From a virus (Duplodnaviria; Caudoviricetes), in the IMG/VR virus record IMGVR_UViG_3300027896_002037, positions 1 to 61,782 of that record: a DNA stretch of 61,782 nt. One strand, given 5' to 3'. The first letter of the stretch is position 1. Each line of letters opens with the position of its first letter. Positions 6,634 to 58,844 of the stretch are shown one piece after another. A program made the translations under genes and the position numbers. Under the pieces are notes generated by a model. The model saw only the letters and a program-made list of their open reading frames with translations, was not told where the DNA came from and did not search any database.

Positions 6634-6662
6634 TTGACTAGAAAATAAAAATAATATATAGT
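6634..6662 (+). promoter_or_regulatory. sigma70-like promoter of nrdD (TTGACT-17-TATAGT)
   Basis: TTGACT 6634-6639, 17-bp spacer, TATAGT 6657-6662; GGAGG RBS before ATG 6689. Confidence 0.65.
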
Positions 6663-6688
6663 TGCCATCAATATCGCGGAGGAATTCT

Positions 6689-26907: not shown

Positions 26908-26912
26908 TTCCA

Positions 26913-27599: not shown

Positions 27600-27619
27600 T
27601 TTAACGAGGAAATATTATA

Positions 27620-30600
27620 ATGGTCCGAATCGATCAATTAAAATTATATAATCAAACAACTGATGGTGTTAGATATATTAGGCATGGGGATGAAAAATAT
27701 CTGATTGCTTTTTTATCTGAAAATTCGACTCTTTTGAACAGTTATTCTAAACTTAATATAAAAATAACCGATGTCAAATATGTCTCAGTGCCGTATACAA
27801 AAATGCCAAGAACCATATTAACATCACAGTTAAAATCGAAATATAAAACTTTAGGATTAAACTCATTACAGTCTAATATACGATTAACATCAGCTCAAAA
27901 TTTATTATATGATCCATCGGAATATATTATAGAACTTGATAAAAAATATAAACCACATCATTATAGAATGTTTGCCGGAACTCAGATTAGAAATGTTTTA
28001 AATACGGGATTCTATCTTTATAAAGAATATAAAAAAGTATTGTTATATTCTATCGATTTGACCAAACCTATACAATCTAACTTTACATCAAGAAAGATTT
28101 TTCCAATTTTACAAGATTTAAAATCTGGTGAATTTGAATATGATTATTTTTTATTTAATGTTATATCAGAGCATGGAAGCAGATATCGTTTATTGGTAAA
28201 AGATAGAGATTTTAAATTTAATCTTGTATGGACATATGTGAAGAGCATAGCCGTCAAACCATCTGTACAAAAAGAATTGGATAGTTCCGATAAATATAAA
28301 ACAGGTGGTGCTATTTTACCATCAGCAGATTTTGTAGAAGATATTCCGGATGATGAACGAGTCAATAACGCAGTTTCAAAACTAGCACCACATATCGATC
28401 CAATAGTAAAGAAAGATAATGTGACAAAAGTTAAAAATTTCGTATCAGATTTTTTAAAGAAAAATCCTCAAATTGTTGATAAAATTGAAACAACTGATGA
28501 TGTAAGCTCTACAGATGCTCAAAAAATTGCGATAGGTTCGATATTGGATAAGACCATTAATAATTCTCAGAAGGCCATGAAACTCATTAGAAATATAGAA
28601 CCTTCTAAGACACAAAAGATTTTATCTAAAGTAGACGCTACATTTACAGATAAATTTATAGAAAAAACAAAAGTTGCATCCACATCTGATAATCAAATTG
28701 TCCAACTTGCAAATGTATCAAAATTAAATGATCATAAAAATCCAATACATCTTTTTGAAAAGAGATCAATTGACTTTAAAACTAACCTTCAAAAAGATAT
28801 AGAATCTGTTTTTAAAGTATTAGAAAATAGAGATATTCCTCTATATACCGAATCTGTAATTTTAACAGATTCTCCATCTAAACCTGGAGAAATTAACAAA
28901 TCTGAAATAACGTTGGCAACTATAACAATTGTAGATATGTTTAAAAATAAGCATATAATACGATTGGAAATACCGAAGATAAATACCGATACTGGAGTAT
29001 TTACAGTTAATGGTAAATCAAAATGTTTAATCAATCAAATGGTCCAGTGTCCAATTTCATTTCCGAGTCCGGGAGATTCTAAATTTGAAAGTGCATATTC
29101 TACTTTTCACATAGAAAGTAAGCATATTAAGAAATATTCTTATTTAAGATCCTACATAGGATCTTTTAAAAATCTACCATTATTAGTTGTAATATCCTTC
29201 ATGTTTGGTTTTGAAAACAGCATGAAATCATATGGAATAGATTATGAGATATCCGATAAAGCTCCCAATAAAATAGATAGTAATGTAGTGAAGATTAATG
29301 ATACTACATTTGTATACTTTAAAAATGTAAACACTGATTTGAAAGCTCAATTATGTAATTCTTTTAATGAAGCAACTCCTTCTCGATATAATATTGATAA
29401 ACCATTATTAAGTAGAGAATATTTTGAAGAATTACTGCAGGCGATAACGGGAACAATCTCAGCATCGTATCATATTAATCGTATTTTCGATAATATCTTA
29501 GACCCAGCCTCTACTCAAGTTCTTATGATACAAGGATTACCACATGATTTAGATTTAATTATAAAATATATGTCTGAAAAAGTAGTGTCTGGATTCTCAC
29601 AAGATAAAAATGATCTTAGCAATCAGCGAATAAGAGGATCCGAAATAATAGCCCATTTAATTGTAAAATCTGTATCTCAGGCATATACCATATATAGAAA
29701 CCAGGTGTTATCTGGAAATAAAAATGCTATATTTGAAATACGAGAAAAAGATATACGGTCTGCATTTTTAACAAGTGATATCGTGTCTAATATGGAATAC
29801 GCCAATCCGGTTGAGGAAATGGCAGTAATGTTGAGAGTGTCTCCTATTGGTAGTGGAATAGGTGGCTTAAAAAATAAGGCGGCAATTTCCTCCGAATATA
29901 GAAATGTACACCAATCATATTTTGGAAATATAGATCCTCTTGATACTCCGGAAGGTGGACAGATTGGAGTTGTTCAACAATTAACTTTAGACGCTGAAAT
30001 TTCATCTACACGCGGCATATTTAATATAAAAGAAGTAGATCCGACTCATGGATCGGGAATTTTATCAACTTCATCGGCATTAATTCCATTTACTAGTTCT
30101 AATGACGGTAATAGAATTATGTTCGCATGTAGCCAGCAAAAACAAATGTTACCTTTAAAAAATCCAGAACCACCCGCAATTATGACCGGATACGAATCTA
30201 TATTAACAAATATACTAACTCCTAACTTTGTAAAAAAGTCTCCAGTAGATGGTATTATAACAGATGTAACGAAAGATAAGATTTCTATAGCTTCTAAAGA
30301 TGGAAAATCATATAGCATAGATCTTTCACCAATACATTTAAGTTCTGGTTCTGGTAGAGATACCTTAAGCATTTTTATTCCTAAAGTTTTAACACATCAA
30401 AAAGTTAGAGAGAAAGAAATTGTCGCAGAAAGCAGTTCAATCAAAGATGGTACTATTTCATTGGGTAGAAATCTCTTAGTTGCATACATGCCATATAAGG
30501 GATATAGCTTTGATGATGGTATTATTATAAATGAGAATTTAGTAAAAAATGAACAGCTAGTCTCTCTTCATGCCATAGTTGAAGAAATCTTAATATCGGA

Positions 30601-31810
30601 AAAAGATAGAATTTTATATATAGTAGAACCCGGAACAAAAACTGAAAAGGGTGATATTTTACTTAGAAAAACTATTGGTGAAATAGAGGAATTATTGGGA
30701 TTTGAGGAAGATGAAACCTCGGTTATGAACGGGCAGGATTTGATAAAGAAGAGCCCTGGAGGAGTTGTCGTCGACATAGAATTATATTCAAATATAGATA
30801 TTTCAAAGAATCCTAAATTAAAAGAGTTTGGTGATAAAACACGAGAACGACACGGGACTGCTCCAAAAGAAAAATTTTCTGTTGGTGGTAAACTCATAAA
30901 AGGAATTCTTATAAAGTTTAAAATCCAGCAGGAACTTTCTATCGATCTTGGGGATAAAATGACAGGTAGATACGGTAATAAAGGAGTTGTGTGCTATATC
31001 GAAGAGAACTCTAAAATGCCACTCTGTCCATGGGGAGATCATGTCGATATAATATTAAACCCATTGGGTGTAATATCAAGAATGAATGTTGGACAGATTT
31101 ATGAAACATATTGTGGCCTTATATCTAAAAGTCTTGCTGGAATGATGGCACATAATACAAAAGAAAGATTTATTCATGCTTTAAAATATGTTTTACCGTT
31201 ATTAGATGGTACACAAAATAAAGAATATAGTACAAATGTGATCGAGGGTCTTGTAGCAACAACTGATAAACAATATCTTAAAATAATGGAAAAAATAAAA
31301 AATGATAGATTTTTTCCAATCATAGTACCGCCTTTTAAATCTCCAACAGTTCAATCTATTAAGAAAGCATTGGATATTTTGGGATTAAAGAGTGGATATA
31401 ATTTATATCTTCCAGAATTTGATGTTAAGACAACCAATGCAGTTCCTGTTGGATATCTATATATGTCTAAACTGGAGCATATTGCCAGATTAAAATCACA
31501 CAGCAGATCTACAGGACCCGTCACAAGTAAAACAGGTCAACCTACGGCAGGTAAGCGACGAGAGGGTGGACAGAGAATGGGAGAATTGGATTCATACTCC
31601 ATATTGTCATATAATGTACCACATTTAGCGTCTGAAATATTCAGTTCAATGTCAGATGATATTAAATCTAAAAATGAAATGATATCTGAAATTGTACAGA
31701 CTGGAGAAACTACATTTAGATATCCTCAAGTCACTCCAGCAAAAGATTTATTATCAAGTTATTTCTTAGCTATGATGTTGGACCAAAGAGAGATGGGTGA
31801 GCTGTTATGA
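27620..31810 (+). CDS. rpoB: RNA polymerase beta-like subunit 1 with long N-terminal extension
   Basis: G.F.VNG, R.VH.SYFG.IDPLDTPEG, DGNR.MF...Q.KQ, LGRNLLVAYMPYKGYSFDDGI, GDKMTGRYGNKGVV, NPLGVISRMNVGQ, GGQRMGELD. Confidence 0.93.
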   Translation: MVRIDQLKLYNQTTDGVRYIRHGDEKYLIAFLSENSTLLNSYSKLNIKITDVKYVSVPYTKMPRTILTSQLKSKYKTLGLNSLQSNIRLTSAQNLLYDPSEYIIELDKKYKPHHYRMFAGTQIRNVLNTGFYLYKEYKKVLLYSIDLTKPIQSNFTSRKIFPILQDLKSGEFEYDYFLFNVISEHGSRYRLLVKDRDFKFNLVWTYVKSIAVKPSVQKELDSSDKYKTGGAILPSADFVEDIPDDERVNNAVSKLAPHIDPIVKKDNVTKVKNFVSDFLKKNPQIVDKIETTDDVSSTDAQKIAIGSILDKTINNSQKAMKLIRNIEPSKTQKILSKVDATFTDKFIEKTKVASTSDNQIVQLANVSKLNDHKNPIHLFEKRSIDFKTNLQKDIESVFKVLENRDIPLYTESVILTDSPSKPGEINKSEITLATITIVDMFKNKHIIRLEIPKINTDTGVFTVNGKSKCLINQMVQCPISFPSPGDSKFESAYSTFHIESKHIKKYSYLRSYIGSFKNLPLLVVISFMFGFENSMKSYGIDYEISDKAPNKIDSNVVKINDTTFVYFKNVNTDLKAQLCNSFNEATPSRYNIDKPLLSREYFEELLQAITGTISASYHINRIFDNILDPASTQVLMIQGLPHDLDLIIKYMSEKVVSGFSQDKNDLSNQRIRGSEIIAHLIVKSVSQAYTIYRNQVLSGNKNAIFEIREKDIRSAFLTSDIVSNMEYANPVEEMAVMLRVSPIGSGIGGLKNKAAISSEYRNVHQSYFGNIDPLDTPEGGQIGVVQQLTLDAEISSTRGIFNIKEVDPTHGSGILSTSSALIPFTSSNDGNRIMFACSQQKQMLPLKNPEPPAIMTGYESILTNILTPNFVKKSPVDGIITDVTKDKISIASKDGKSYSIDLSPIHLSSGSGRDTLSIFIPKVLTHQKVREKEIVAESSSIKDGTISLGRNLLVAYMPYKGYSFDDGIIINENLVKNEQLVSLHAIVEEILISEKDRILYIVEPGTKTEKGDILLRKTIGEIEELLGFEEDETSVMNGQDLIKKSPGGVVVDIELYSNIDISKNPKLKEFGDKTRERHGTAPKEKFSVGGKLIKGILIKFKIQQELSIDLGDKMTGRYGNKGVVCYIEENSKMPLCPWGDHVDIILNPLGVISRMNVGQIYETYCGLISKSLAGMMAHNTKERFIHALKYVLPLLDGTQNKEYSTNVIEGLVATTDKQYLKIMEKIKNDRFFPIIVPPFKSPTVQSIKKALDILGLKSGYNLYLPEFDVKTTNAVPVGYLYMSKLEHIARLKSHSRSTGPVTSKTGQPTAGKRREGGQRMGELDSYSILSYNVPHLASEIFSSMSDDIKSKNEMISEIVQTGETTFRYPQVTPAKDLLSSYFLAMMLDQREMGELL

Positions 31811-36802: not shown

Positions 36803-37228
36803 TTGAAACGAAAATATTATTACGATAGAGATAAGATATGTTTAATTGTTGACACATCAAATGACAATTCAAAGATAGCAATTGAATGTGGTCTTAAAAA
36901 AATAGAAAAACTAATTAAGTCATGTAACAGTAAAAAGATGGTAGTTATCGATACAATATCGAAAAAAGAATATAAAATTAAAAATTTAGATGAAATAACA
37001 TATCCAACTTTTGACGGGACGGGGGATATAGTATCTGCATTGAAAAGATCATTAGAGTTGGAATCGGATCTCACATTCGTATTTACCAATTGTAAAAAAC
37101 TTGATGTAGAAAAGAAAGATGTTCCAAGATGCATTTTATGGGTTCTTCCCGATGAAACAATTTCTATTGATAATTTTAGTAATATAGGATACATAGTCAA
37201 AGAAATTGGTGAGAATACTTTAGATTAG
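36803..37228 (+). CDS. Stand-alone degenerate VWA domain (paralogue of upstream C-terminus)
   Basis: LIVDTSND, YKIKNLDEI, LKRSLELESDLTFVFTN, P..ILWVLP, G.IV align with the upstream VWA domain. Confidence 0.7.
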   Translation: MKRKYYYDRDKICLIVDTSNDNSKIAIECGLKKIEKLIKSCNSKKMVVIDTISKKEYKIKNLDEITYPTFDGTGDIVSALKRSLELESDLTFVFTNCKKLDVEKKDVPRCILWVLPDETISIDNFSNIGYIVKEIGENTLD

Positions 37229-37770
37229 TGGGTGCGACAATGAATAGATTAGATTGGGATCAGTATTGGATGGGAATAGCAAAATTAACTGCTTCTAGAT
37301 CGACATGTTTATCACGGTCTGTCGGTGCAATTTTAGTTAAAAATAATCAATTATTATCGACTGGTTATAATGGTGCATTGCCAGGACAATCACATTGTAC
37401 AGAGAGTCAAGATGGATGTCATCGCAGATCTATGAATGTATCTGACAACTCCAAATATGATGTGTGTAGATCTTCACATGCCGAAGCCAATGCTATAGCA
37501 TTGGCAGCGAAAATTGGAATTCCCATAGACAATTCAACATTATATTGTACATTATCACCATGTTTTACATGTTCTAAATTATTAATAATGTGTGGTATTA
37601 AAAGAGTTGTTGTTGAATTAATATACACATCTTTAAATAAAGAACGTGACGAAATGTGGTTGCGTTTTTTAAAAGAAAATGATATAGACTTTAAACGTTT
37701 AAAACTGGAAGGGATGAAAGATAATTTACTAGATATCTTTCAGGATGAAACATCCAAAAGAAAAATTTAA
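37228..37770 (+). CDS. dCMP deaminase
   Basis: WDQYWM.IA, RSTC..R.VGA, TGYNG, HAEANAI, PCFTC. Confidence 0.92.
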   Translation: MGATMNRLDWDQYWMGIAKLTASRSTCLSRSVGAILVKNNQLLSTGYNGALPGQSHCTESQDGCHRRSMNVSDNSKYDVCRSSHAEANAIALAAKIGIPIDNSTLYCTLSPCFTCSKLLIMCGIKRVVVELIYTSLNKERDEMWLRFLKENDIDFKRLKLEGMKDNLLDIFQDETSKRKI

Positions 37771-47557: not shown

Positions 47558-47586
47558 AATCCCCGTCCTTAGAGACGGGGATTTTC
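47558..47586 (+). terminator. Rho-independent terminator
   Basis: AATCCCCGTC-CTTAGA-GACGGGGATT then TT. Confidence 0.6.
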
Positions 47587-47644: not shown

Positions 47645-49963
47645 ATGTCAAATAAAATCGAAGAAGGAATTTTTATAAATAATTCTTATATTTATCCAAT
47701 AGCAATTCATACTAATGATAATGTTCTTGAACGAGTTGCTTTGGGCGAACCATATATTGATTCCGACATTAGATTAAGCAACGCGTTAAGTAATAATATA
47801 ATCTTACCCCCCAATTGCAGGATAGTGAGCACACGCGATAATGGTGGATATACATTTCTTTTAGAATTGCCACCGGCGATTAGAACTATCGGAATATCAG
47901 AGAGTTTGCTATCTAGCGAATACAATACATTCATTACAGAGTTTGGCGGAACATATGAAGAAATAGAAAAAATTATGGCAACTAAGTGCCTAAGCCAGAC
48001 TGAAAATGTATATTATAAGATTAGATTACAATTTCCCTGGACGATTTTCATAATTACTGTAGACCGGGGAATAGACCGGGGAGTAGACCGAGGAGTAGAC
48101 CCGGGGAACGATATCTATGAGATAAACTCTATGAAAGTATATTTTTCAAAAATTTCCATATCAACCCCAGAAGATAAAATTTTTATTCCACCATTAACAA
48201 ATATAAATTCAGATGGACGACTATGTATACCTCGCACACACGCATCATCGAGTATATGCGATTTAGTTTCTGACCAAGTAGATTTGTTTTGGGGTTCAAT
48301 ATTTAATAGAGACCTCAGTGGACACAAACTAGCATATCCAAGAACTAGTAATCTCTATAATCTTTTAAAATGGTCATTGGAATCGTTAAAAGATCCATTA
48401 TTTATCTTTAAAGAACAATTTTGCAGAGAAACATCTTTGGTAGAATCTGGGGTATTCGATGGACGCCGCCAAGACCTACCGAGTACTCTATATGCAAGGA
48501 TTGCTCATCATAGATCTAATAAGTATATATCTTCTATAACTACAGATGATGGAAAAACATATTATAGAGGAGATATCATCACTTTAAATGATAAATATTA
48601 TCGTATAGCTTATTTCCTAGGTGATGGCCGTGTAGAATTACAAGAAGAAACTGATAAAAGTGTGCGTATAGAAGAAAATATTAAAATTATTCATCAAGAA
48701 TATATAACAAAAAATGAGATAGTTAAAATTGAAGATCCTATAGAAATAGATGGAAAAGTACTAAAAACATCTCAGTTAATCAAGATTAACTTAAATGGTA
48801 ACTGCGCATTGTATATAATAGAAGATATATTTTTTGATAACCGAATCGGTTTATATAAATTTAAAGTAAGTGGTCTCTCTAAGTGGATTGTTCTATCAGA
48901 GTATATATTAAAAAATACAGTCATAATTAATAAGATCGATGTTGGAGACACTATTGCTGTAAAATCTAGAATAGACCGGGGTATAATGCATATCCTAATT
49001 GGAAAAGTTACAGAAACAGACCGGCTTAGAGTAACATTATGTGGAACAGAGACTTTCCATATTGATGATACTCGGATCGAGTCCATAGACAAATATGATG
49101 ATATTGAATCTTTAGAATTAGAATCTTCTATTGAGGAAATAACTCCCTTTAAATGGCTAGATACTGTATATTTTCCGAACGGATTGGCATTGAGATATAT
49201 CATATCTAATGATATATTATGTGATATATCAGATCTACGATATAAAAAATCCACAGATAAGATTAATATACCTTCACCATTTGCATATAAAGATTTAGAA
49301 ACTAATAAGATAATTACGTATTCAATAGGATCATTTGTTGTTTTTCCAGAGATAAATAGGAAGCAGTTCTCAGCTGGTGAAATAATAGGGTTTGAGCATG
49401 GTTCATCAAATAGTACAATATTACTAAAAACTGTTGATGGTGACATACACCGAATCAAATTTGCATATAGACTAGGTGATAACTCTTTAAAACTAAATCT
49501 TGGAATAGCTAATTCTATGACCTCTTTTAAAATAGATTTTAATAATACCTTATCTATTGGAGATAAAATTCGTCCGAAAATAGCGAATATTCCACATATG
49601 AAAAAATCGGAAGTTCTGGAAATTCGAGCAATGGTTCACACTAAAAATTGTCCAATGGAAGTATATTTATCAAATGGTAGATGTGTAGAGTTAGCAGATC
49701 TTTTAAAATATTTTGAGATATATTCAAAAGATGATGCTAAATTCAATTTAAAGAAAAATCAATTAAAGTTTAAAGAACATCCGGTCATACCGGGCGATAT
49801 TGCTATATTTGATAATAATTTGTGTCATTCCATAATAACAAAGGTATACCCAAAAAGGTATGCATTGGAAAATTCAGATATTAGGTATAATTATAATATA
49901 ATGGTAAAACCGGTTCCAACAAAGATACTCGATATTTCAGTTGAAGCGGTTAATCCTAATTAG
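47645..49963 (+). CDS. Prokaryotic E2-like (family D / PRTRC B-type) domain fused to a long beta-rich C-terminal region
   Basis: FPWTIF, PPLTNINSDGRLC (Cys codon 48224), FWGSIFN; repeated (V/I)GD.(I/V) barrel motifs downstream; start ATG 47645. Confidence 0.7.
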   Translation: MSNKIEEGIFINNSYIYPIAIHTNDNVLERVALGEPYIDSDIRLSNALSNNIILPPNCRIVSTRDNGGYTFLLELPPAIRTIGISESLLSSEYNTFITEFGGTYEEIEKIMATKCLSQTENVYYKIRLQFPWTIFIITVDRGIDRGVDRGVDPGNDIYEINSMKVYFSKISISTPEDKIFIPPLTNINSDGRLCIPRTHASSSICDLVSDQVDLFWGSIFNRDLSGHKLAYPRTSNLYNLLKWSLESLKDPLFIFKEQFCRETSLVESGVFDGRRQDLPSTLYARIAHHRSNKYISSITTDDGKTYYRGDIITLNDKYYRIAYFLGDGRVELQEETDKSVRIEENIKIIHQEYITKNEIVKIEDPIEIDGKVLKTSQLIKINLNGNCALYIIEDIFFDNRIGLYKFKVSGLSKWIVLSEYILKNTVIINKIDVGDTIAVKSRIDRGIMHILIGKVTETDRLRVTLCGTETFHIDDTRIESIDKYDDIESLELESSIEEITPFKWLDTVYFPNGLALRYIISNDILCDISDLRYKKSTDKINIPSPFAYKDLETNKIITYSIGSFVVFPEINRKQFSAGEIIGFEHGSSNSTILLKTVDGDIHRIKFAYRLGDNSLKLNLGIANSMTSFKIDFNNTLSIGDKIRPKIANIPHMKKSEVLEIRAMVHTKNCPMEVYLSNGRCVELADLLKYFEIYSKDDAKFNLKKNQLKFKEHPVIPGDIAIFDNNLCHSIITKVYPKRYALENSDIRYNYNIMVKPVPTKILDISVEAVNPN
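48059..48106 (+). repeat. 12-bp tandem repeat x4 (RTAGACCGRGGA), in frame
   Basis: gtagaccgggga/atagaccgggga/gtagaccgagga/gtagacccgggg encoding VDRG-IDRG-VDRG-VDPG. Confidence 0.9.
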
Positions 49964-49982
49964 ATTGTTCTATACCCTTTAG

Positions 49983-50026
49983 GTCAAGGGATGTCACATA
50001 ATAATTCAATGATGGCATCCCTTGAC
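49983..50026 (+). promoter_or_regulatory. Intergenic 14-bp stem-loop between E2 and JAB genes
   Basis: GTCAAGGGATGTCA / TGGCATCCCTTGAC with one U-G pair; no immediate U tract. Confidence 0.55.
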
Positions 50027-50052
50027 AAAATTTCTTGAAAAAGGAGCATTTA

Positions 50053-50973
50053 ATGTTTAAAATTGTCATAAACGATGGAAATACGACACTTCCGATAGAT
50101 AATATTTATTATCTTATTGGAAAAGATGGAATTTATATCCATAAAAAATCAGATATATTTGAGGCATGTGTAAAGGTTAAACATATTTCATTTTTAGAAC
50201 CAGTTAAATCATATGCTAAGTTAAATATTCCAAAGATACCTGAACCTTTAACAAAGCAAATGTATAGTTTCTTTTCAGAGGTATATGCTAGATTTCAATC
50301 TGAAGCGGCTATCATGATATTTTATAATAATACCACTAAAGAACATTCTTTAAAAGTTCCACAACAGGTTATATCATCAGCACACCTCGAATGTTCATAT
50401 AATATAAGCGTGCCAGGATTTCTATCAATAGGAACATGTCATAGTCATGCTGGATTTGGTGCGTTTCACTCCCCAACAGATATTAAAGATGAGAATGATT
50501 TTGACGGTTTGCATATGACATTTGGAAATTTAGATCAAGAAAATATCTCAATATCTATGGAGGTTGTCTCCAATGGATCTAGATTTAAATGTTTACCAGA
50601 AGATTATCTAGATGGTATACAGAAAATTGGTAACCTTTATAAAATCGAACTATCTGAATTTCCCGAAGAGTGGATGGCATGTGTTGAGAAGAAAGTTCAT
50701 GTGGTGCCAGATAAGTTTGATTATTTAAAAGATTTTGCGTTTGGAGATTATTTCTATCCGACGCTTCCAAAGAAATTACCAAAGTTAACGGGATCCAATA
50801 ATATTCATTGTAATAACTGCCAATTCAATAGGGTCATTGAATGTCACAAAGATGATATTGACAATGCTTCGAGAATTCAGGAATTGGATTATTATGACGA
50901 CATGGAAGCTATAATTAAAGCACATCAATATTATGATATATTGAAAGAAGACGAAGATGAGATATTGTATTAA
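50053..50973 (+). CDS. JAB/JAMM metallopeptidase (deubiquitinase-like; PRTRC A-type)
   Basis: YYLIGKDG, IPKIP, SEAA Glu, VPQQ, CHSHAGFGAFHSPTDIKDE (HxH-x7-S-xx-D); start ATG 50053. Confidence 0.88.
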   Translation: MFKIVINDGNTTLPIDNIYYLIGKDGIYIHKKSDIFEACVKVKHISFLEPVKSYAKLNIPKIPEPLTKQMYSFFSEVYARFQSEAAIMIFYNNTTKEHSLKVPQQVISSAHLECSYNISVPGFLSIGTCHSHAGFGAFHSPTDIKDENDFDGLHMTFGNLDQENISISMEVVSNGSRFKCLPEDYLDGIQKIGNLYKIELSEFPEEWMACVEKKVHVVPDKFDYLKDFAFGDYFYPTLPKKLPKLTGSNNIHCNNCQFNRVIECHKDDIDNASRIQELDYYDDMEAIIKAHQYYDILKEDEDEILY

Positions 50974-51640
50974 GATCATTGGTTTGGGCGGCATAGGTAG
51001 TTCGCTGTCAAATATTTTAAGTAGATTTGTTAATTATGATATAGAAAATGAATATATTTTCCATCTTATAGATGGTAAGGAACTTCAACCCAGAAAATTA
51101 GAACGTCAAGAATTTGAAATGGAATCTGGTAATAAGGCCGAACTTAAAAAAATGGAATTGGAGAGAAAATTTCCAAATATCCAATATGTAGAATGCCCAT
51201 TCTATTTAAATGATAGAAATGTTCATAATATTATAGAGGAAGGAGATATAATATTTCTATGCGTCGATAATCATAAATCAAGAAATTTAGCAAGTCGTTT
51301 TGTAGATACATTGGATAATAGTGTTCTTATATCGGCTGGTAATGATCTGACAGATGGTAATGCACAATTATATATTCGACAAGATGGAATTAAAATAACT
51401 CCATCTTTAACCGATTATCATCCAGAAATATCAAATTTTACAGATAAATTACCAGAAGAATTATCATGTGAAGAATTAGCATTTTCTTCTCCACAGATTT
51501 ACTTAGCTAATCTGCAGGCTGCTGTATTGATGTCTGAGATTTTTAGGATTTATAAGTTAAATAAAGAAGTTATTTCTGAATGTTATTTTGATATTGATAC
51601 AATTAATGTGAGATCAGTTACACGAAAACCAAAAAAATAA
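50957..51640 (+). CDS. ThiF/E1-like adenylating enzyme
   Basis: GLGGIGS, IDG, RQ.F, NKAE, CVDNHKSR, SAGN, SCEE (Cys codon 51467), AN. Confidence 0.88.
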   Translation: MRYCIKIIGLGGIGSSLSNILSRFVNYDIENEYIFHLIDGKELQPRKLERQEFEMESGNKAELKKMELERKFPNIQYVECPFYLNDRNVHNIIEEGDIIFLCVDNHKSRNLASRFVDTLDNSVLISAGNDLTDGNAQLYIRQDGIKITPSLTDYHPEISNFTDKLPEELSCEELAFSSPQIYLANLQAAVLMSEIFRIYKLNKEVISECYFDIDTINVRSVTRKPKK

Positions 51641-51653
51641 AGGAGAATATTTT

Positions 51654-52253
51654 ATGAAGAATTTTTATTTAAGTGAGTTGGAAGAAATGGACACAATTGA
51701 GCTTAAGGATATCATTGATCAGTTAACTGATTTTCCCAATCATCCTTCCTACGAGGACGATGCCACAGATGACCAGTTAATTCGTCTTGTAATGTACCTT
51801 CAGACGGCCATTGCAAATGGCGAAGATGTTAAGGTCATCGATGATGATGACGATGATGAGTATGATGATGATTGTGATGATGATAACGATGATGACGATT
51901 ATGATGATGATGATGATGACGAGTGCGATTGTGATGGTTGTAATGGTTGTAATACTGAAGAATCTACTACTGGTGGAATCTCATCTGCAGTAGTCACAGT
52001 TGCTACCGCTATTAATACCGAAACCGAAGAAGCCGACATTACAGTCTATGTGCAGTGTGGTGCTAATTCTGGAAACTACGCTCTGGTTGGAAAGTCCATT
52101 AAGAATGCAATGGTATTTATCGGTGAAGTTATGAATATTGGAGAACTTCGCTACCCCATGGTTAATGGTGTAGAGGTAAGTCAGGATTATATTCTTAAGA
52201 ATGGTGATAGTCTTGAATTTATTAAAATGGCTGGTGAAAAAGGACTGGCCTAA
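51654..52253 (+). CDS. Multidomain ubiquitin-like protein: helical N-domain, Asp-rich tract, C-terminal beta-grasp ending AGEKG-LA
   Basis: V.VQCG, GKSI, VNG.EV..DYILKNGDSLEF.K.AGEKG; last gene of the E2-JAB-E1 run. Confidence 0.8.
   Translation: MKNFYLSELEEMDTIELKDIIDQLTDFPNHPSYEDDATDDQLIRLVMYLQTAIANGEDVKVIDDDDDDEYDDDCDDDNDDDDYDDDDDDECDCDGCNGCNTEESTTGGISSAVVTVATAINTETEEADITVYVQCGANSGNYALVGKSIKNAMVFIGEVMNIGELRYPMVNGVEVSQDYILKNGDSLEFIKMAGEKGLA
51840..51953 (+). repeat. (GAT)n low-complexity tract encoding poly-Asp then CxCxxCxxC
   Basis: DDDDDDEYDDDCDDDNDDDDYDDDDDDECDCDGCNGCN. Confidence 0.9.
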
Positions 52254-52283
52254 TTTAAAATAACCGTTAGCTTAGATTGATTG

Positions 52284-52316
52284 AAGAAATGGGGTTAATT
52301 CCCCATTTCTTTTTTT
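52284..52316 (+). terminator. Rho-independent terminator closing the Ubl operon
   Basis: AAGAAATGGGG-TTAATT-CCCCATTTCTT followed by T run. Confidence 0.85.
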
Positions 52317-52363: not shown

Positions 52364-52405
52364 AATTTAAAATATAATATAAGAATTTTGAAGGAGAATA
52401 TAAAT

Positions 52406-52675
52406 ATGCATCATATGATTGATAAAGCTACCGATATTTTAAAAAAATATAAGGAAAATGATCTGGTAGTAGTAACTTTTATAAAAAAAGATGGAACTCG
52501 CAGAGTTATGAAATCAACTTTAAAAATGAATTTAATACCCAATGATAAAAAACCAAAACAATTAGATCTTACTAAAATTCTTACTAAGATTAAACAGGGA
52601 ATTCTAAGTGTTTTTGATGTTGATGTGATGGAATGGCGATCTATTCCAATGGATAGAATAGAAAAGATAGAATAG
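52406..52675 (+). CDS. WYL_2 / SH3-like beta-barrel protein
   Basis: VTF.KKDGTRR.MK.TL, VFDV....WRS...DRI; start ATG 52406 after AAGGAG. Confidence 0.75.
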   Translation: MHHMIDKATDILKKYKENDLVVVTFIKKDGTRRVMKSTLKMNLIPNDKKPKQLDLTKILTKIKQGILSVFDVDVMEWRSIPMDRIEKIE

Positions 52676-53005: not shown

Positions 53006-55729
53006 ATGCCAAAATTAGCAGATATTAATAAATTTTGCGAAGATTTGCCAGAGATCAAGACTTCACATACTATAAGTAGAAAAAAATTCCATCCACATGG
53101 ATTGTTTTCTGAACAGATTTTTGGTCCAGTAAAAAGTTTTACTTGTAAATGTAAGATAACTAATAGAAGTGGGAAGCGATGCCCAACATGTGGAATTGAA
53201 TATGTGTCATCCAAAGAACGGCGAAGAAGATTTGCTAAGATAATTTTGCCAGTTCCTGTCATAAATCCACTTTTTTATGATTTATTACATGAAAAATTTA
53301 CATCTGAATTTATTAAAAAATTAGATTTTTTCATGAAGGAAAAATACGCCTGTTTATATGTTCCATATTCCTCGAATGAAGACGTATTCATTACTGAGAA
53401 GAATGAAGATGAAAAATATCCATCTGATAGATTCAGAAGGTATACCCGACATGAGGCTATAAAAGAATTTGTTAAATGGGGAGCTGCGACACTTAATGAT
53501 GCGTACGGGAAATACATATTAGCAAATATTGATAAATTAATTTTGACAGAGATTCCGGTTATTCCACCAGATCTTAGACCGGCAATGCCAGCATCTGCCC
53601 ACAGTGATAGAGTAAAGGGTGATATCATTAATGATAATTATTCGAATATCTTAACTAAAAAAGAAGCAATGGAAAAGACAACATTGGAGATACTCCGAAA
53701 TAATGACTTATATTTTACATATTCTCGGCTTATCCAAAATGAAGTTAATATAATATATAAATATATTACGTCTAAGATGTCAAAAAAAGAAGGATTGATT
53801 AGGGGAAATATTCTTGGAAAACGTATGGACTTTTCGGGGCGTGCAGTTATTGTTCCAGACCCCACTTTAAGTATAGATCAATGCTATCTGCCATACTATA
53901 TGCTTTTAGAGTTATTTAAAATCCAAATTGCACATCAATTAATAGAAGCTGGAAAATTTAAGATTTTTAATAATGCTCTAGATTATATTTCAGAGTGTAT
54001 AGAATTAAACGACTATGCGTTATATGATATAGTAGAAAAAGTAACTAAAAATGAGGTGTGCTTACTCAATAGACAACCATCTCTTCACAGACTTGGATTA
54101 TTAGGGTTTGAGATTAAAGTGTGTAAAGGATTTACTATTGGAATCTATCCACTGATATGCGCCGGATATAATGCGGATTTTGATGGAGATCAGATGGCAG
54201 TATATCTTCCTATCTCAGAAGAAGCCAAGCAAGAAGTTCGTGAAAAGTTTTTTGCATCTAAAAATTTATATAGTCCTACAAATGCATCCTTAACGACAAT
54301 ACCATCTCAGGATATTGTTCTTGGTATATATTTATTAACTAATAATATGATTCCGGAATTAGCGGAAAATGTTGAATGTAAGGGGCATATGATAAGCGGT
54401 GGTAGAGCTATTTTTAACAATATATTGCCGAAAGATTTTGGAATAGTAGATGACGTAATCCGAAAAAAATTGCTCTATTCTATATTAGCAGAAGTTGCAC
54501 AGAAATACGATTCACATGTTGTAACAGAAATATTGGATAATATTAAAAATGTTGGATTTTATTATGCAACATATTTTGGAGTAACTCTATCATTGGATAA
54601 TTTTAAAATAGAGGGAATAGACAAATTTACCTCAGATATATATGATATGGAAACATCAAAAGAACAGTTATCTGCAATTACCAGTAAAGAGACTGAAGCT
54701 TATTTAAAAAATCACTTTAAATATTCATATCTGATAGATTCTGGTGCACGCGGAACATGGGATCAGGCCAGACAAATTGTAATGACTCGTGGATATATTT
54801 CTAACTTCAATGGACAAATTCAGGAAACTCCTATTAAGAGCAGTCTCGTAACTGGACTTTCACCCGAAGAGTTCTTTACATCAACATATGGATCTCGCAA
54901 AGGCCTATTAGATACCGCAATTAACACGGGAGTCTCTGGTTATTTATTCAGAAAATTAATTTTTGCAGCATGTAATATGGAAAAAAGTTTAGACTTAGAT
55001 GATTGCGGAACAACAGAATATTTAGACATCAAAATAGATACTGAAAAAATTGCAAAAATGTTAGAATATAGATGGTATCTTGATGAAGTTGATAATATCG
55101 AAAAAATGGTAACATCTGAAAATTATAAGAATTTGATTGGAAAGACTCTTAAATTTAGAAGTCCTGTCTACTGCAAATCAGATCAAATTTGTCATAAATG
55201 CTACGGCGGTTTATATAAACTGTTACATAGTAGATATATCGGAATCATTGCAGCACAGGGAATTGGAGAAATTGGTACGCAGTTAGTATTAAGATCATTC
55301 CATACATCAGGTGTGGCATCGACAAAGATAGAAACAATTGATTTAATGAAACAGGAAGATATCGTTGGTGATCTTACCACCGTAAATAAATTACTACATG
55401 GAAAAAGTAAGGATCTAGAAGGAGTAGCTCCATCGGAATTAGCACGACAATTATTTAAGATATATAACCAAACCAGTGAGATACACCACGTACACATGGA
55501 AGTTATTGTAGCACAAAAGATGTGGGCTGGAAGATATAAGTGGAGATTGCATCCTAAGCGGGATAATATTCCATACACATGGCATAGTATTCAGACAATA
55601 CCATCAATGGAAGGGTGGTTATTAGGATTTGGTTTTGGAAATCCTAAAAAGAATCTTTTATTGGGAATGTTGACAAAAAGTATGTATTCTGGTATATTGG
55701 ATAAAATTTTATTGGGCAAAAAACTTTAA
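53006..55729 (+). CDS. rpoC: RNA polymerase beta'-like subunit 2 (unsplit, compact)
   Basis: GLFSEQIFGP, CKC...CPTC Zn ribbon, VIPPDLRP, LGKRMDFSGRAVI, NRQPSLH, YNADFDGDQMAV, TG.SGYL.RKL, GE.GTQL.LRSFHTSG, HMEVIVAQ. Confidence 0.95.
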   Translation: MPKLADINKFCEDLPEIKTSHTISRKKFHPHGLFSEQIFGPVKSFTCKCKITNRSGKRCPTCGIEYVSSKERRRRFAKIILPVPVINPLFYDLLHEKFTSEFIKKLDFFMKEKYACLYVPYSSNEDVFITEKNEDEKYPSDRFRRYTRHEAIKEFVKWGAATLNDAYGKYILANIDKLILTEIPVIPPDLRPAMPASAHSDRVKGDIINDNYSNILTKKEAMEKTTLEILRNNDLYFTYSRLIQNEVNIIYKYITSKMSKKEGLIRGNILGKRMDFSGRAVIVPDPTLSIDQCYLPYYMLLELFKIQIAHQLIEAGKFKIFNNALDYISECIELNDYALYDIVEKVTKNEVCLLNRQPSLHRLGLLGFEIKVCKGFTIGIYPLICAGYNADFDGDQMAVYLPISEEAKQEVREKFFASKNLYSPTNASLTTIPSQDIVLGIYLLTNNMIPELAENVECKGHMISGGRAIFNNILPKDFGIVDDVIRKKLLYSILAEVAQKYDSHVVTEILDNIKNVGFYYATYFGVTLSLDNFKIEGIDKFTSDIYDMETSKEQLSAITSKETEAYLKNHFKYSYLIDSGARGTWDQARQIVMTRGYISNFNGQIQETPIKSSLVTGLSPEEFFTSTYGSRKGLLDTAINTGVSGYLFRKLIFAACNMEKSLDLDDCGTTEYLDIKIDTEKIAKMLEYRWYLDEVDNIEKMVTSENYKNLIGKTLKFRSPVYCKSDQICHKCYGGLYKLLHSRYIGIIAAQGIGEIGTQLVLRSFHTSGVASTKIETIDLMKQEDIVGDLTTVNKLLHGKSKDLEGVAPSELARQLFKIYNQTSEIHHVHMEVIVAQKMWAGRYKWRLHPKRDNIPYTWHSIQTIPSMEGWLLGFGFGNPKKNLLLGMLTKSMYSGILDKILLGKKL

Positions 55730-55745
55730 TACTTAGGAGTGTGCA

Positions 55746-58700
55746 GTGAAGAATATCATAAATCCAAATTTTAAAATGAAAGATGGTCATAATCTTTTTA
55801 AAATTAGGGAAGAGGATTATAATAATATTATTCCAAATGTAAGAATGATTTTAGAACCAGTTTTAAAAGAAGGATTTCAGATATTAGAACTTGGTCTAAA
55901 AGATTCTTATGCTAGTGAGGTTGATAGAAATCTATATCAATTACTTGTAATAACCCTTCAAAAAGGTGAACATGTTGTTGATCTAACTTTAAAGATTCCA
56001 AAGATTGTCGATGGAAATTTTGTTATTATTGGCGGAAAGAGAAAGATTCCGCTTTTTCAATTATTTGATCTACCATTTGTAACAACCTCAGATGGTACAT
56101 TAAAAATAAGAACTAATATAGCTACATTTAATATATCAAGAACAAAGAATTCTCCATATGTAGTTATGAAAGTTCTCGGTTCAGATATACCATTATCATT
56201 ATTAATCTTATCTAGATATATAGATGTCAATGTTATAATTGATTTTTTCGATCTAAATAATATTGAGTTTCCACTTGATGATGAAGATTTTGATTATAGT
56301 ACTCTAACTCTATATGATGCCCTCAGATATGATCTTAAGAATTATATCGAGGATTACGGTGGAAAGAGTAAAGAATTTTATGCCAATATGATAAATGGAT
56401 TCTATACAAAATCCGCATATGCAAAGGGAGAGAATATTCTCTATGCACTGGATATTGTAACAAAGGTTGATCCGATTTCTGCTAGATTTTTTAAAAGCGA
56501 TCATATTATAGATGAAGCTGTTAATTTTATATATAGAGTTTCGTCCGGAGAATTTATAGATGATACCAATCTATTAAATAAGCGTATGCGCTGTATGGAA
56601 TATATGGTCCTGAAGATAATATCAAAAGCTGCATTCGATTTGTGCATGCTAAGTAAGGGATCGAGTATAAAATTAAAAATAAATAGTAAGCAGATTATAT
56701 CAGAGGTCAGTGTATCTGATGTTGTACAATTCGATTCGTCAATCAATCCAATTGAAAACTTAACATCAATTTTACGATGTACTTATCTTGGAAAAAGCAC
56801 TGGTGGGTTCGATAGATCCAGTATTCCAACTCGACTGCGTGATATTAATCCATCTATGTTTGGTAGAATTTGTCCCGTAGAAACTCCAGATAGGGAAAAT
56901 TGTGGAGTAGTACAATCTTTAATACCAAATGTTAACTTCGATCAAAATTATAAGTTTACCGAAGAAATTTGTGCCAAGCAACCAGTATCATTAGCGGTAT
57001 CGATGGTTCCTTTTTTAGAGAAAGACGATCAAACCCGACTACAAATGGCATCCTCACAAATGAGGCAGGCGATAAATTTAAAGAAGATTGAACAACCATT
57101 AATTCAAAGTGGTTCAGAAGGATTATATTCAGACTATACATATTTTATTAAGAAAGCTAAGAAAAATGGAGAAGTTGTATACGCAGATAATGACCTTTTG
57201 ATGATATCATATGATGATCATACATACGATATTTTTGATATTGGAATTAGAAATACATATACTGAAAATATCGATATACCCAAAGTATATGTATCGGTTG
57301 GAGATAAGGTAAAGGCTGGAGATATCCTATCAGAAAGCAACTATTCAGATGGTGGTAAAATTCAAATAGGTAGAAATCTTTTAACTGTTATAATGCCATA
57401 CTATGGATATAACTATGAGGATTCTATAGTTATCTCGGATAAATTAGTAAATGAAGATATTTTAACGTCTATGCATCATGTTAATTTGGGATTTATTCTA
57501 TCGCCCGATAAAGTACTATTGAGCTTAGATAATGATAGATATAGACCTTTACCAAATCCACAAACATATTGTAATGATAAAGATTCTCCTTTTCAAACAC
57601 CACGAAAAATTGAATTGATCAAGCATGGGGAACCATATGCCATTATAAAAGAATTACAAGATGATCCCCTTATGTTTACCAATAATTTCGGTGAGTCGAT
57701 AAAACTCTTGGCAAAAAAAGATATCATGATAACCTCAGTAGAATTATATCCGAATACATATAATCACTCAGTGCCGGAATTCAAAGATTGGGTTGAGAAG
57801 AAATTTCAAACTCAGTTAGATCATCAAAATAAGATTCATGAAATTATTAAACAGTATGTACCAAAAGAAGGAATTCAACGATATATTAAAGATAGGAGTT
57901 TGGATAGGTTTTCATTAGCTGGAAAATTTAAAATAAAAGATGATCCTATAAAAGGTATGTACATCTCAATTAAGGGTGTATATTCTAGAAAAATTGATCA
58001 GGGTGATAAAATTGGAAACAGGCATGGAAATAAAGGAGTTATTTGTAAAATCGTTCCTCATGATAAAATGCCACAACTTCCAGATGGAAGACATGCAGAA
58101 ATAATCATTAATCCATTAGGAATAATTTCAAGAATGAACATTGGGCAGACCTTTGAATTACATTTGGCAATGTCCTTAAATGATTTGAAAAACAATTTAT
58201 TTAAAATGTTAGACAAACGAAGCTCACAGAAAGATATGAAAAAATATATACTTGATTATATAAAAATTTTAGACAATACAAATGAGCGATGGTATACAGA
58301 ACAAGTTGAAGAAATGTTTACGGGTTATAGTACCCATATAGATAATGAATTCATTAGTAAACTTTATCTATTGGCACCACCATTTGAATCATCGTCATAT
58401 GAACAATTACAGTTAGCTTGTCAGTATACAAATACTGCACTGGAATATAAGATATATGATCCTAGTATAGAGAAATATATTATTAATCCCGAAGGGGTTG
58501 GATTTATGTATTTCTTTAGAATGATACATATAGCAGAAGAAAAGATTTCTGCTAGAGGTATCGGATCATATTCTAAAAAAACACTTCAACCACCGGGGGG
58601 CCGTAGAAACCACGGCGGTCAACGATGTGGAGAAATGGAAACTTTTTGCTTTGCAGCACATGATGGTATTGAAAATTTAACAGAAATTTTAACTACGAAA

Positions 58701-58844
58701 TCAGACTGCATGGGAAAGAAAAATAAATATCTAAAAGAGGCACTTGCTTCAGAATATTTAAAAGAAGTCTCTGAAGACGATATGATACCAGAAAGTGTTA
58801 AGCTGATGGAGGCATATCTAAAAACTGTTGGTATAGATTTATAA
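55746..58844 (+). CDS. rpoB: RNA polymerase beta-like subunit 2 (unsplit)
   Basis: FGRICPVETPD, DD..R.QM.SSQMRQA, GRNL...MPY.GYNYEDSI, GDKIGNRHGNKGVI, NPLGIISRMNIGQ, GGQRCGEME. Confidence 0.95.
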   Translation: MKNIINPNFKMKDGHNLFKIREEDYNNIIPNVRMILEPVLKEGFQILELGLKDSYASEVDRNLYQLLVITLQKGEHVVDLTLKIPKIVDGNFVIIGGKRKIPLFQLFDLPFVTTSDGTLKIRTNIATFNISRTKNSPYVVMKVLGSDIPLSLLILSRYIDVNVIIDFFDLNNIEFPLDDEDFDYSTLTLYDALRYDLKNYIEDYGGKSKEFYANMINGFYTKSAYAKGENILYALDIVTKVDPISARFFKSDHIIDEAVNFIYRVSSGEFIDDTNLLNKRMRCMEYMVLKIISKAAFDLCMLSKGSSIKLKINSKQIISEVSVSDVVQFDSSINPIENLTSILRCTYLGKSTGGFDRSSIPTRLRDINPSMFGRICPVETPDRENCGVVQSLIPNVNFDQNYKFTEEICAKQPVSLAVSMVPFLEKDDQTRLQMASSQMRQAINLKKIEQPLIQSGSEGLYSDYTYFIKKAKKNGEVVYADNDLLMISYDDHTYDIFDIGIRNTYTENIDIPKVYVSVGDKVKAGDILSESNYSDGGKIQIGRNLLTVIMPYYGYNYEDSIVISDKLVNEDILTSMHHVNLGFILSPDKVLLSLDNDRYRPLPNPQTYCNDKDSPFQTPRKIELIKHGEPYAIIKELQDDPLMFTNNFGESIKLLAKKDIMITSVELYPNTYNHSVPEFKDWVEKKFQTQLDHQNKIHEIIKQYVPKEGIQRYIKDRSLDRFSLAGKFKIKDDPIKGMYISIKGVYSRKIDQGDKIGNRHGNKGVICKIVPHDKMPQLPDGRHAEIIINPLGIISRMNIGQTFELHLAMSLNDLKNNLFKMLDKRSSQKDMKKYILDYIKILDNTNERWYTEQVEEMFTGYSTHIDNEFISKLYLLAPPFESSSYEQLQLACQYTNTALEYKIYDPSIEKYIINPEGVGFMYFFRMIHIAEEKISARGIGSYSKKTLQPPGGRRNHGGQRCGEMETFCFAAHDGIENLTEILTTKSDCMGKKNKYLKEALASEYLKEVSEDDMIPESVKLMEAYLKTVGIDL

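Follow-up and report, generated by a model that had tools for sequence, protein, structure and literature searches.

A predicted virus-encoded ubiquitin-like conjugation cassette in a clade of uncultured jumbo phages

The virus record IMGVR_UViG_3300027896_002037, a single IMG/VR record of 61,782 bp that was judged to be an approximately 20% complete fragment of a jumbo-phage genome and is referred to here, at its full length, as the window, contains four adjacent genes for an E2-like protein, a JAB-type metallopeptidase, a ThiF-type E1 enzyme and a small protein, the tag, that resembles the precursor of a ubiquitin-like protein (Ubl). These genes probably form, within one transcription unit, a virus-encoded pathway for the conjugation of a Ubl to proteins, shared by a clade of uncultured jumbo phages. 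In local hidden Markov model searches, the order E2-JAB-E1-Ubl was recovered, on one strand, from 28/28 related IMG/VR loci. Since the same four families occurred in the same order in all of these viral loci, the four-gene cassette is far beyond chance. Its features, in window positions unless residues are given, are as follows.

47558..47583, + strand: upstream terminator-like hairpin (10-bp stem, 6-nt loop, then UUUUCU)
47645..49963, + strand: giant E2-like protein, 772 aa, read from ATG; the longest open reading frame (ORF) opens at TTG 47603
47798-48328, + strand: N-terminal domain of the E2-like protein resembling ubiquitin-conjugating (UBC) enzymes, residues ~52-228, assigned from a Prok-E2_D match, structure search and Asn186/Cys194
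50053..50973, + strand: JAB/JAMM metallopeptidase, 306 aa when read from ATG 50053 and 312 aa from TTG 50035, where the ORF opens
50957..51640, + strand: minimal ThiF/MoeB-type E1, 227 aa, with a single adenylation domain (Pfam ThiF)
51654..52253, + strand: predicted ubiquitin-like modifier precursor (the tag), 199 aa, with a Lys196-Gly197 terminus
Tag residues ~4-56, + strand: diverged helix-extended-helix (Rho_N/SAP-like) N-domain, from superposition on a Rho N-domain
Tag residues ~60-115, + strand: poly-Asp/Cys linker, read from the sequence
Tag residues ~122-197, + strand: C-terminal ThiS/Prok_Ub-like domain, from similarity to ThiS, TGS and Prok_Ub
52242-52244, + strand: codon of tag Gly197, followed by the Leu-Ala tail at 52245-52250
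52283..52312, + strand: intrinsic terminator closing the four-gene unit (12-bp stem, 5 GC pairs, T run)

Layout, conservation and distribution of the cassette

An initial annotation of the window, made from its sequence, had described four co-oriented genes between two terminators, embedded among core phage genes of the same base composition. This description was confirmed. The ORFs at 47645-49963, 50035-50973, 50957-51640 and 51654-52253 are all on the + strand, as are all long ORFs of the window. GC contents of the four genes (0.289-0.390) compare with a mean of 0.312 for 28 other window genes (standard deviation 0.039, range 0.240-0.424). Pfam and PHROGs scans identified the gene content of this virus record as phage replication, transcription and baseplate genes; genes outside the cassette include those for a RecA/UvsX-like protein, topoisomerase II subunits, SbcC/SbcD, a ligase, RtcB and a baseplate spike. 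The sequencing runs listed as containing the sequence were two DNA runs from freshwater metagenomes, one of them possibly its source, and none was of RNA.

The hairpin at 47558-47583, which closes the preceding unit of small genes, was missed by a consensus terminator scan and is visible in the sequence itself; upon RNA folding (dG -16.9 kcal/mol, z -3.65), 0/200 shuffled sequences were as stable. For the terminator at 52283-52312, the corresponding values were -20.8 kcal/mol and -5.25. Shine-Dalgarno-like sequences were found ahead of the ATGs at 47645, 50053 and 51654, with AAAGGA located 7 nt ahead of the E2 start and AAGGAG 7 nt ahead of ATG 50053. Because of this AAGGAG sequence, and because homologues of the peptidase begin with MFKI, ATG 50053 is most likely the start of the JAB gene. 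The start of the E1 gene overlaps the JAB stop by 17 nt. The E2 and JAB genes are separated by 89 nt, within which a 9-bp inverted repeat (49985-49993 and 50016-50024, CAAGGGATG ... CATCCCTTG, 22-nt loop) is immediately followed by TTGACA and could represent a regulatory hairpin or an internal promoter.

The conserved synteny answered a check proposed with the initial annotation, a survey of related phage genomes. The 28 loci, on contigs of 28-277 kb, included one irregular case (L033), in which E2 was found in several pieces. The pattern scan of IMG/VR that yielded them used a 19-sequence E2 subset, the full deep alignment being too diverse, and a first viral scan with E1 alone had returned no loci. 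Across the related contigs the cassette is part of a longer conserved block with the order helicase, SbcD, SbcC, radical SAM, WYL_2, two small genes, E2, JAB, E1 and tag, continuing with two small genes, a second ThiF, a mini-E2, a small gene and RNA polymerase beta'. Each element of the block was present in 13-29 of 29 contigs; the radical-SAM gene, for example, was located four genes upstream of the cassette in 26/29 relatives. The window retains the ends of the block, while radical SAM, the small genes and the second ThiF/mini-E2 pair were not found within its 61.8 kb.

Two elements of this block show features of their own. In the window, a gene for a small WYL_2 protein (Sm-like SH3 barrel; 52388-52675, 9.8e-11) lies directly downstream of the cassette; in 26/28 relatives its homologue is instead found three genes upstream of E2. 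The second ThiF-type E1 (Pfam ThiF 2.5e-14; for example L023:13855-14826, 323 aa) occurs two genes downstream of the tag in 26/29 related contigs and is followed by a protein of ~110-120 aa with an HPN-x8-C-L motif and no Pfam family (for example L007:14568-14915 and L012:14112-14456), which is possibly a mini-E2. Most relatives thus carry a second E1 and a 110-aa mini-E2 with HPN...Cys, which, on a more speculative reading, could point to a two-branch cascade in those phages.

Relatives of the E2-like protein were numerous in metagenomes. A word-based search found 4 homologues only; with a profile, 1.84 billion metagenome representatives yielded 2114 clusters when the threshold was E<=1e-3, of which 949 remained at <=1e-10 and 199 at <=1e-30; lengths of 800-900 aa predominated among the best 150. 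A scan of the genomes of 185,579 prokaryote species (one genome each) gave only 2 matches, both in contigs of metagenome-assembled genomes. These contigs (L034, 4.9 kb, and L035, 34.7 kb), labelled Heimdallarchaeota and Thermoplasmatales, show the cassette order E2-JAB-E1(-Ubl) and, since they carry the same cassette, are probably mis-binned viral contigs. Searches of GenBank phages gave no match with E2 (tblastn) or with the cassette region (blastn), and three records matched E1. PHROGs held no family for E2, JAB or the tag.

Candidate active sites and folds of the four proteins

The initial annotation had assigned an E2-like domain with a Cys in NINSDGRLC to the first protein, an intact E/HxH/S/D peptidase motif to the second, a ThiF-type fold with a candidate catalytic Cys in SCEE to the third and an AGEKG-LA terminus to the last. 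All four features were present in the translated proteins. In the E2-like protein, the candidate catalytic Cys is Cys194 (codon 48224-48226). An alignment of 137 full-length relatives contained only six invariant columns, among them Asn186 and Cys194 (137/137 for both), and the spacing of eight residues between these two was kept in 120/137. The HPN...Cys signature of canonical E2s has the same 8-residue spacing. Pfam gave a Prok-E2_D (PF14460) match at residues 163-239 (E 1.2e-3, 19.1 bits vs a cut-off of 25); the same family was matched, also sub-threshold, by 3/4 close homologues (best 2.9e-5) and 5/19 distant ones, and a precomputed PF14460 match exists for homologue P0003. A search of PDB sequence profiles with one alignment of the E2 family gave no match at E<=10, and a deeper alignment gave only a chance-level match to pelota (E 0.17).

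An AlphaFold2 model of E2 residues 1-285, built from an alignment of 6 sequences, was compared with known structures by VIA-align. With residues 52-228 as query, E2/UBC, UEV or RWD structures made up 8 of the top 10 and 34 of 50 rows. The best match was 3bzh (E2 E1; Z 6.9, root-mean-square deviation (rmsd) 3.1 A, 96 aa), and the bacterial proteins in the list were Cap2 (Z 5.9), BubB (Z 5.4) and CdnG-E2. Each Z was modest; because the matches agree with one another, the list supports a UBC-like fold for this predicted domain. Together with invariant Asn186 and Cys194, it upholds the E2/UBC identity proposed in the annotation, for which the Prok-E2_D family scored only below its cut-off.

The remainder of the E2-like protein (residues ~290-772) is also conserved among the relatives, G309-D310, S676-N677 and G717-D718 being nearly invariant, and gave no match in Pfam, PDB or the ESM Atlas. 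We propose that this region serves in target recognition. Tandem SH3-like 'GD' modules, considered as its possible architecture, were not established, as repeats in a self-comparison were weak (E 0.016-0.05).

In the JAB peptidase, the motif E90...H136-x-H138-x7-S146-xx-D149 (numbering of the 312-aa ORF) was invariant in 27/27 homologues; a C-terminal region of ~130 aa contains Cys-x2-Cys. The closest families were Prok-JAB in Pfam (E 1.5e-3, 18.8 bits vs a cut-off of 25) and TIGR03735 PRTRC_A in NCBIfam (E 1.6e-7, 31.1 bits vs 101.8), and the best PDB profile matches were RPN11 (E 1.1e-3) and AMSH.

The E1, with homologues of 225-289 aa, was the only cassette protein to score above a curated threshold (Pfam ThiF, 3e-10, 40.1 bits vs 28.1, residues 5-143). 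Its candidate catalytic Cys171 (codon 51467-51469) is located in the crossover-loop motif SCEE and was invariant in 27/27 homologues, as were G9, G11, G12 and G14 of the glycine-rich loop GxGGxG, D39, R50, Q51, K60, D104, N105 and R109. PDB profile matches comprised the ThiF-type 9egc (3.6e-8), Uba4, ThiF, MccB (E 3e-5), MoeB, SAE2 and SUMO/NEDD8 E1 chains. The best NCBIfam matches were ThiF/MoeB adenylyltransferases, all of them far below equivalog cut-offs, and the sole PADLOC matches were E1-E2 (Cap2-type) models (best 2.6e-6).

The tag was analysed in an alignment of 29 members, consisting of the window protein, two database proteins and 26 non-identical proteins from the loci. Lys196-Gly197 was invariant in 29/29. 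Across the 29 contigs, 22 tags end at this Gly and 7 carry 1-5 extra residues, namely C (three times), YK, LA, IDVGL and VILTK, which are mutually unrelated. As read from these sequences, a fixed Gly followed by short, unrelated and dispensable tails is the hallmark of a modifier that is made as a precursor. The annotation had interpreted the terminal LA as a pro-peptide removed by the JAB enzyme. The distribution of tails (22/29 vs 7/29) strongly supports a pro-peptide, while its removal by JAB is a prediction.

Among the 29 tags, Pfam matches were obtained to Rho_N (23/29, best 3.4e-15), TGS (15/29) and ThiS (13/29, best E 2e-3). TGS and ThiS, whose matches to the C-terminal domain were sub-threshold (for the window tag, ThiS scored 14.8 bits vs a cut-off of 22.5), are both beta-grasp families, and no other fold family recurred. 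In the ESM Atlas, 23/30 feature matches of the tag were ThiS-bearing viral clusters, and a structure search based on the Atlas's own model gave TM scores of 0.81/0.83 to a ThiS cluster over 75 residues. Alignment by hhalign with the Prok_Ub repeats of a Bacillus phage, described below, gave E 7e-4 over 56 columns.

The N-terminal part of the tag is, by sequence, a Rho_N/SAP-like helix-extended-helix domain in most relatives. PDB profile searches with the tag returned Rho N-domains only (best E 1.9e-3), and the model of the window N-domain was superposed on the Rho N-domain 1a62 with Z 6.3. In most relatives this domain, placed ahead of the Ubl domain, is basic. In the window lineage this part is extremely acidic: the basic GMSKKRKD-type motif has disappeared, and a poly-Asp/Cys linker has been acquired. 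The N-terminal 124 residues of the window tag carry a net charge of -40, compared with -34 and -26 in its two closest homologues and +13 to -19 in others. The linker itself (residues ~60-115) is a poly-Asp/Glu stretch with five Cys (CDCDGCNGC-like), which may act as a DNA mimic or as a metal-binding arm.

Relation to known systems and competing explanations

A simpler homologous set was found in the cultured Bacillus jumbo phage vB_BauM_KLEB27-3 (OM634661), in which gp194-gp199 (record positions 161827-174348, L002) bear no annotation beyond 'ThiF family adenylyltransferase', 'PRTRC_A domain-containing' and hypothetical protein. As in the window, the genes encode an E2_D protein (gp196, E 2.7e-4), a JAB (gp195), a ThiF (gp194) and a Ubl (gp199, Prok_Ub E 5e-27), with the order E2-JAB-E1, and hhalign related the E2 of this phage to the window E2 family (E 1.7e-4, 136 columns). 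The two sets differ in that KLEB27-3 has a stand-alone E2 of 255 aa, with a separate and unrelated 559-aa gene upstream (hhalign E 0.48), an E1 of 295 aa vs 227 aa in the window, and an upstream Ubl polyprotein without a helix-extended-helix domain. This polyprotein, gp199, consists of four nearly identical 57-aa Prok_Ub repeats that are directly joined and are followed by a 7-residue tail; each repeat ends in AGVKG, where the window tag has AGEKG. By its sequence, gp199 is a poly-ubiquitin-like precursor. Because the next repeat follows directly, a peptidase must cut after the Gly of AGVKG.

At the level of kind, the cassette is a prokaryotic E1/E2/JAB/Ubl system, and it belongs to no named one. 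Clusters of this kind, including the PRTRC cassette of mobile elements, were predicted in 2006 by Iyer, Burroughs and Aravind, whose prediction is also the origin of the Pfam families Prok-E2_D, Prok-JAB and Prok_Ub (PMC1779556). Shared with those clusters are a Ubl with a C-terminal Gly, a JAB, a ThiF-type E1, an E2-like protein with a conserved Cys and an occurrence on mobile genetic elements; the 2006 families were, moreover, the only recurrent Pfam/NCBIfam matches of the cassette. It differs from them in its location in jumbo-phage genomes rather than integrative and conjugative elements or plasmids, in the fusion of an extra conserved region of 480-600 aa to the E2, in the Rho_N/SAP-like N-domain on the phage Ubl and in scores below every curated cut-off of the 2006-type families but ThiF. 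Class 6d E2s are described as having an absolutely conserved His after the Cys (PMC1779556); unlike these, the E2 family alignment contained no invariant His after the Cys.

Kinship with PRTRC-type or Bil systems, put forward in the initial annotation, held at the superfamily level only, and membership of either system did not. The PRTRC system is covered by NCBIfam models TIGR03734-03741, and its proteins include PRTRC_A, PRTRC_ThiF, B, C, D, E and a ParB-related gene. Scores of the window proteins were 31.1 bits vs 101.8 for PRTRC_A and 18.9 vs 144.75 for PRTRC_ThiF. The E2 and the tag matched no PRTRC model at E<=1 (NCBIfam), and Pfam scans of the window showed no ParB family.

The BilABCD (bacterial ISG15-like) systems are host anti-phage systems which, in the accounts drawn on here, resemble the cassette in having separate Ubl, E2, JAB and E1 genes, Cys chemistry and no E3, as well as Ubls with varied N-terminal domains and pre-proteins processed by the JAB (PMC11601596, PMC11601603). 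They serve host defence, whereas the window cassette is viral; their gene order is Ubl-E2-JAB-E1 (PMC11601596, PMC11601603) instead of E2-JAB-E1-Ubl, and the window E2 is about 5x larger than a Bil E2. Nor did the window E1 (227 aa, with a single ThiF match at residues 5-143) have the Bil E1 architecture. PADLOC 2.0.0 (2023), a library that may not hold Bil models, gave no match for E2, JAB or the tag.

Type II systems of anti-phage signaling based on cyclic oligonucleotides (CBASS) share E1 and E2 domains of the same superfamilies and a JAB partner (Cap3) with the cassette. Cap2 is an E2-E1 fusion whose substrate is a CD-NTase C-terminus and not a Ubl, whereas in the window E2 and E1 are encoded by separate genes on either side of the JAB gene. 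With no such fusion, and with no CD-NTase or effector in the Pfam scans of the window, the cassette was not assigned to Cap2/Cap3. Bub (6E/DUF6527) systems likewise comprise an E1, an E2, a Ubl and a peptidase, and are reported to use Ser/Tyr oxyesters and a DUF6527 serine protease (PMC11601596). In contrast, both candidate catalytic residues of the cassette, Cys194 and Cys171, are invariant Cys, and the window Pfam scans contained no DUF6527 match, so that membership of Bub was also rejected.

A phage JAB-plus-Ubl pair is already known from lambda-type phages, in which the JAB of gpK (JAB-NlpC/P60) cuts after the Ubl domain of gpI (PMC1779556, PMC12908700). This pair has no E1 and no E2, and hence no conjugation, and stands among structural genes, whereas the cassette stands among replication and transcription genes. 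The ThiS-ThiF and MoaD-MoeB pairs share E1 size, active site and ThiS-like tag features with the cassette, and are without E2 or JAB. The cassette is thus distinguished by its viral genome, giant E2, minimal E1, helix-extended-helix/acidic tag arm and Lys-Gly end. A literature search, whose coverage did not extend to subscription journals and supplements, returned no description of a phage-encoded E1/E2/JAB/Ubl cascade and only the lambda gpI/gpK Ubl/JAB pair. A jumbo-phage overview (PMC7824862) contained zero mentions of Ubl, JAB, ThiF, E1-like or E2-like proteins and the word 'ubiquitin' twice, in unrelated contexts; a 2026 review (PMC13282480) contained zero mentions of ubiquitin, Ubl, JAB or ThiF.

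Several observations weigh against a protein-conjugation pathway. The Pfam matches of E2, JAB and Ubl were all below curated cut-offs. Models of the E2 domain and of the tag (the latter an AlphaFold2 model from an alignment of 5 sequences) were of low confidence, with mean predicted local distance difference test (pLDDT) values of 54.1 and 58.9, respectively. Foldseek gave no match at E<=0.001 for the E2-domain model against PDB or for the tag model against PDB and BFVD, and every VIA Z of the E2 domain was <8, a range that the tool itself calls possibly a mere common arrangement. The C-terminal domain of the tag, with the element order beta-beta-alpha-beta-beta in its model, was closest to RCK_C/TrkA_C (Z 6.0-7.0, rmsd 3.3-4.0 A, 71-77 aa), and ubiquitin-like chains reached only Z 3.8-3.9. 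The beta-grasp fold that the annotation had assigned to this domain is favoured by its ThiS, TGS, Prok_Ub and ESM Atlas likeness; because the RCK_C-like model speaks against it, we regard the fold as probable but not settled. The tag ends in Lys-Gly instead of Gly-Gly, the terminus of ubiquitin, ThiS and MoaD. No E3 is encoded. Finally, the E1 is a bare adenylation domain without the separate Cys domain or the E2-recruiting domain of canonical E1s, and for this reason the hand-over from E1 to E2 is unproven.

Part of this evidence would also fit a sulfur carrier, in which a tag of the ThiS/MoaD type is adenylated and thiocarboxylated to supply sulfur for a cofactor, tRNA or DNA base, with no conjugation to proteins. 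ThiS is the closest named family of the tag, both in Pfam and among the Atlas clusters, the E1 has the small size of ThiF or MoeB and found ThiF, MoeB and Uba4 among its best NCBIfam and PDB matches, and a radical-SAM gene is a regular upstream neighbour. Such a role is nevertheless highly improbable. An E2-like protein with the invariant Asn...Cys, which has no role in sulfur transfer, was co-encoded in 29/29 loci, and a JAMM peptidase with an invariant motif was likewise always present. Large N-terminal domains such as those of the tags are unusual for sulfur carriers, and the scores of the E1 against ThiF/MoeB models have been given above. In the window, ThiS stayed below its cut-off, the tag terminus is Lys-Gly, and the Pfam scans showed no rhodanese, cysteine desulfurase, thiazole or molybdopterin synthase, or other sulfurtransferase family; membership of the ThiS/MoaD sulfur carriers was rejected on these grounds. 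Very unlikely, too, is a system in which the tag Gly is activated in an MccB- or ATG8-like manner and attached to a non-protein acceptor (a nucleotide, a lipid, the end of a DNA or a small molecule), with the large 'E2' acting as scaffold or transferase for the acceptor. MccB does occur among the E1 profile matches, the ~500 aa past the E2 domain have no known family and could bind any substrate, most tags carry a domain of nucleic-acid-binding type (Rho_N) and the cassette lies among DNA-metabolism genes. Yet MccB-type systems act on short peptides without E2 or JAB, and the invariant Asn...Cys and the UBC-like fold signal are indicative of a thioester relay, which in every characterised case named by PMC11601596 (Bil, Bub and type II CBASS) ends on protein.

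A narrower, defence-directed purpose with the same chemistry is unlikely as well: the JAB would strip conjugates made by host Bil or CBASS systems, or a decoy E1, E2 and Ubl would titrate or mis-modify host components. Host systems are reported to place a Ubl on phage tail proteins or to prime CD-NTases, and their JABs reverse the conjugates (PMC11601596, PMC11601603); the restriction of the E1's PADLOC matches to Cap2-type models fits with such a target. A simple deconjugase, however, would need no E1, E2 or tag, PADLOC matched none of the other three proteins, and the cassette is fixed in a conserved replication/transcription block (26-29 of 29 contigs), thus behaving as a core gene set and not as a variable accessory anti-defence island.

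Proposed pathway, accompanying genes and implications

The protein-conjugation pathway that we favour can be outlined from the invariant residues, the gene linkage and the available reports on Bil, Bub and Cap2 (PMC11601596, PMC11601603). The tag would be made as a precursor from which the JAB peptidase trims Leu-Ala, exposing Gly197. With ATP, the ThiF-type E1 would adenylate Gly197 and hold it as a thioester on Cys171, after which the tag would be handed to Cys194 in the UBC-like domain of the E2. The additional E2 region of ~480-600 aa would select targets in place of an E3, on the model of E2/E3 hybrid enzymes, and the tag would be placed on a target lysine. The JAB probably also reverses the conjugates. 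Host takeover, counter-defence and the exclusion of competing phages were put forward in the initial annotation as possible purposes of such a pathway.

Because most tags carry a Rho_N/SAP-like domain, conjugation would provide targets with a nucleic-acid-binding handle. It is conceivable, though doubtful, that the cassette forms a jumbo-phage SUMO-like system, in which a self-encoded E1 and a giant E2/E3 hybrid tag host or phage proteins with a DNA/RNA-binding domain in a chromatin-style manner. The tag would then tie its targets to the phage genome as this replicates, or drive them away from it, and in the window lineage the tag would present a DNA-mimicking poly-acidic arm instead. Such a role would be reflected in the fixed place of the cassette between genes for a recombination nuclease and a phage RNA polymerase.

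Other genes of the window merit mention in their own right. Genes for multisubunit RNA polymerase beta' and beta, all unsplit, occur as two separate sets (23764-31810 and 53006-58844), an arrangement also seen in phages that have both a virion and a non-virion polymerase; the closest GenBank entries to the second beta' were only 26-29% identical. An unusual auxiliary gene at 12272-13567 encodes a full-length Nramp-family divalent-metal transporter (Pfam Nramp 8.9e-70). The anaerobic ribonucleotide reductase NrdD (6662-10693, 1343 aa) is broken by an intein-like insert at residues 589-883 (Intein_splicing 9.2e-8, below cut-off), and the ORF that follows (10693-11586) matched a ribonucleotide reductase barrel fragment. 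A protein with a dATP/dGTP diphosphohydrolase N-terminal domain (2743-3135, 8e-17) and a dCMP deaminase (37228-37770, 4e-24) suggest, in combination, that the nucleotide pool or a DNA base of this phage may be modified or unusual.

In the accounts considered here, the only role shown to date for Ubl conjugation in bacteria is that of a weapon of the host against phages, in Bil, type II CBASS and probably Bub (PMC11601596, PMC11601603). The pathway proposed here would reverse these roles by placing a whole Ubl cascade on the side of the virus, at a fixed position in the core replication/transcription block of uncultured jumbo phages that form a widespread clade. Its E1 of 227 aa and its E2, which incorporates a putative substrate-binding region, would make it a compact system for the study of E3-free choice of targets. 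To judge from the Lys-Gly end of the tag, all that would remain of it on modified proteins after tryptic digestion is one Gly (+57 Da). Because this increment has the nominal mass of carbamidomethylation, standard proteomics would overlook or misinterpret the conjugates of the tag. Which proteins are tagged, and what the phage gains by tagging them, is a directly testable question, for which a tractable entry point is offered by KLEB27-3, the cultured Bacillus phage whose homologous set is simpler.

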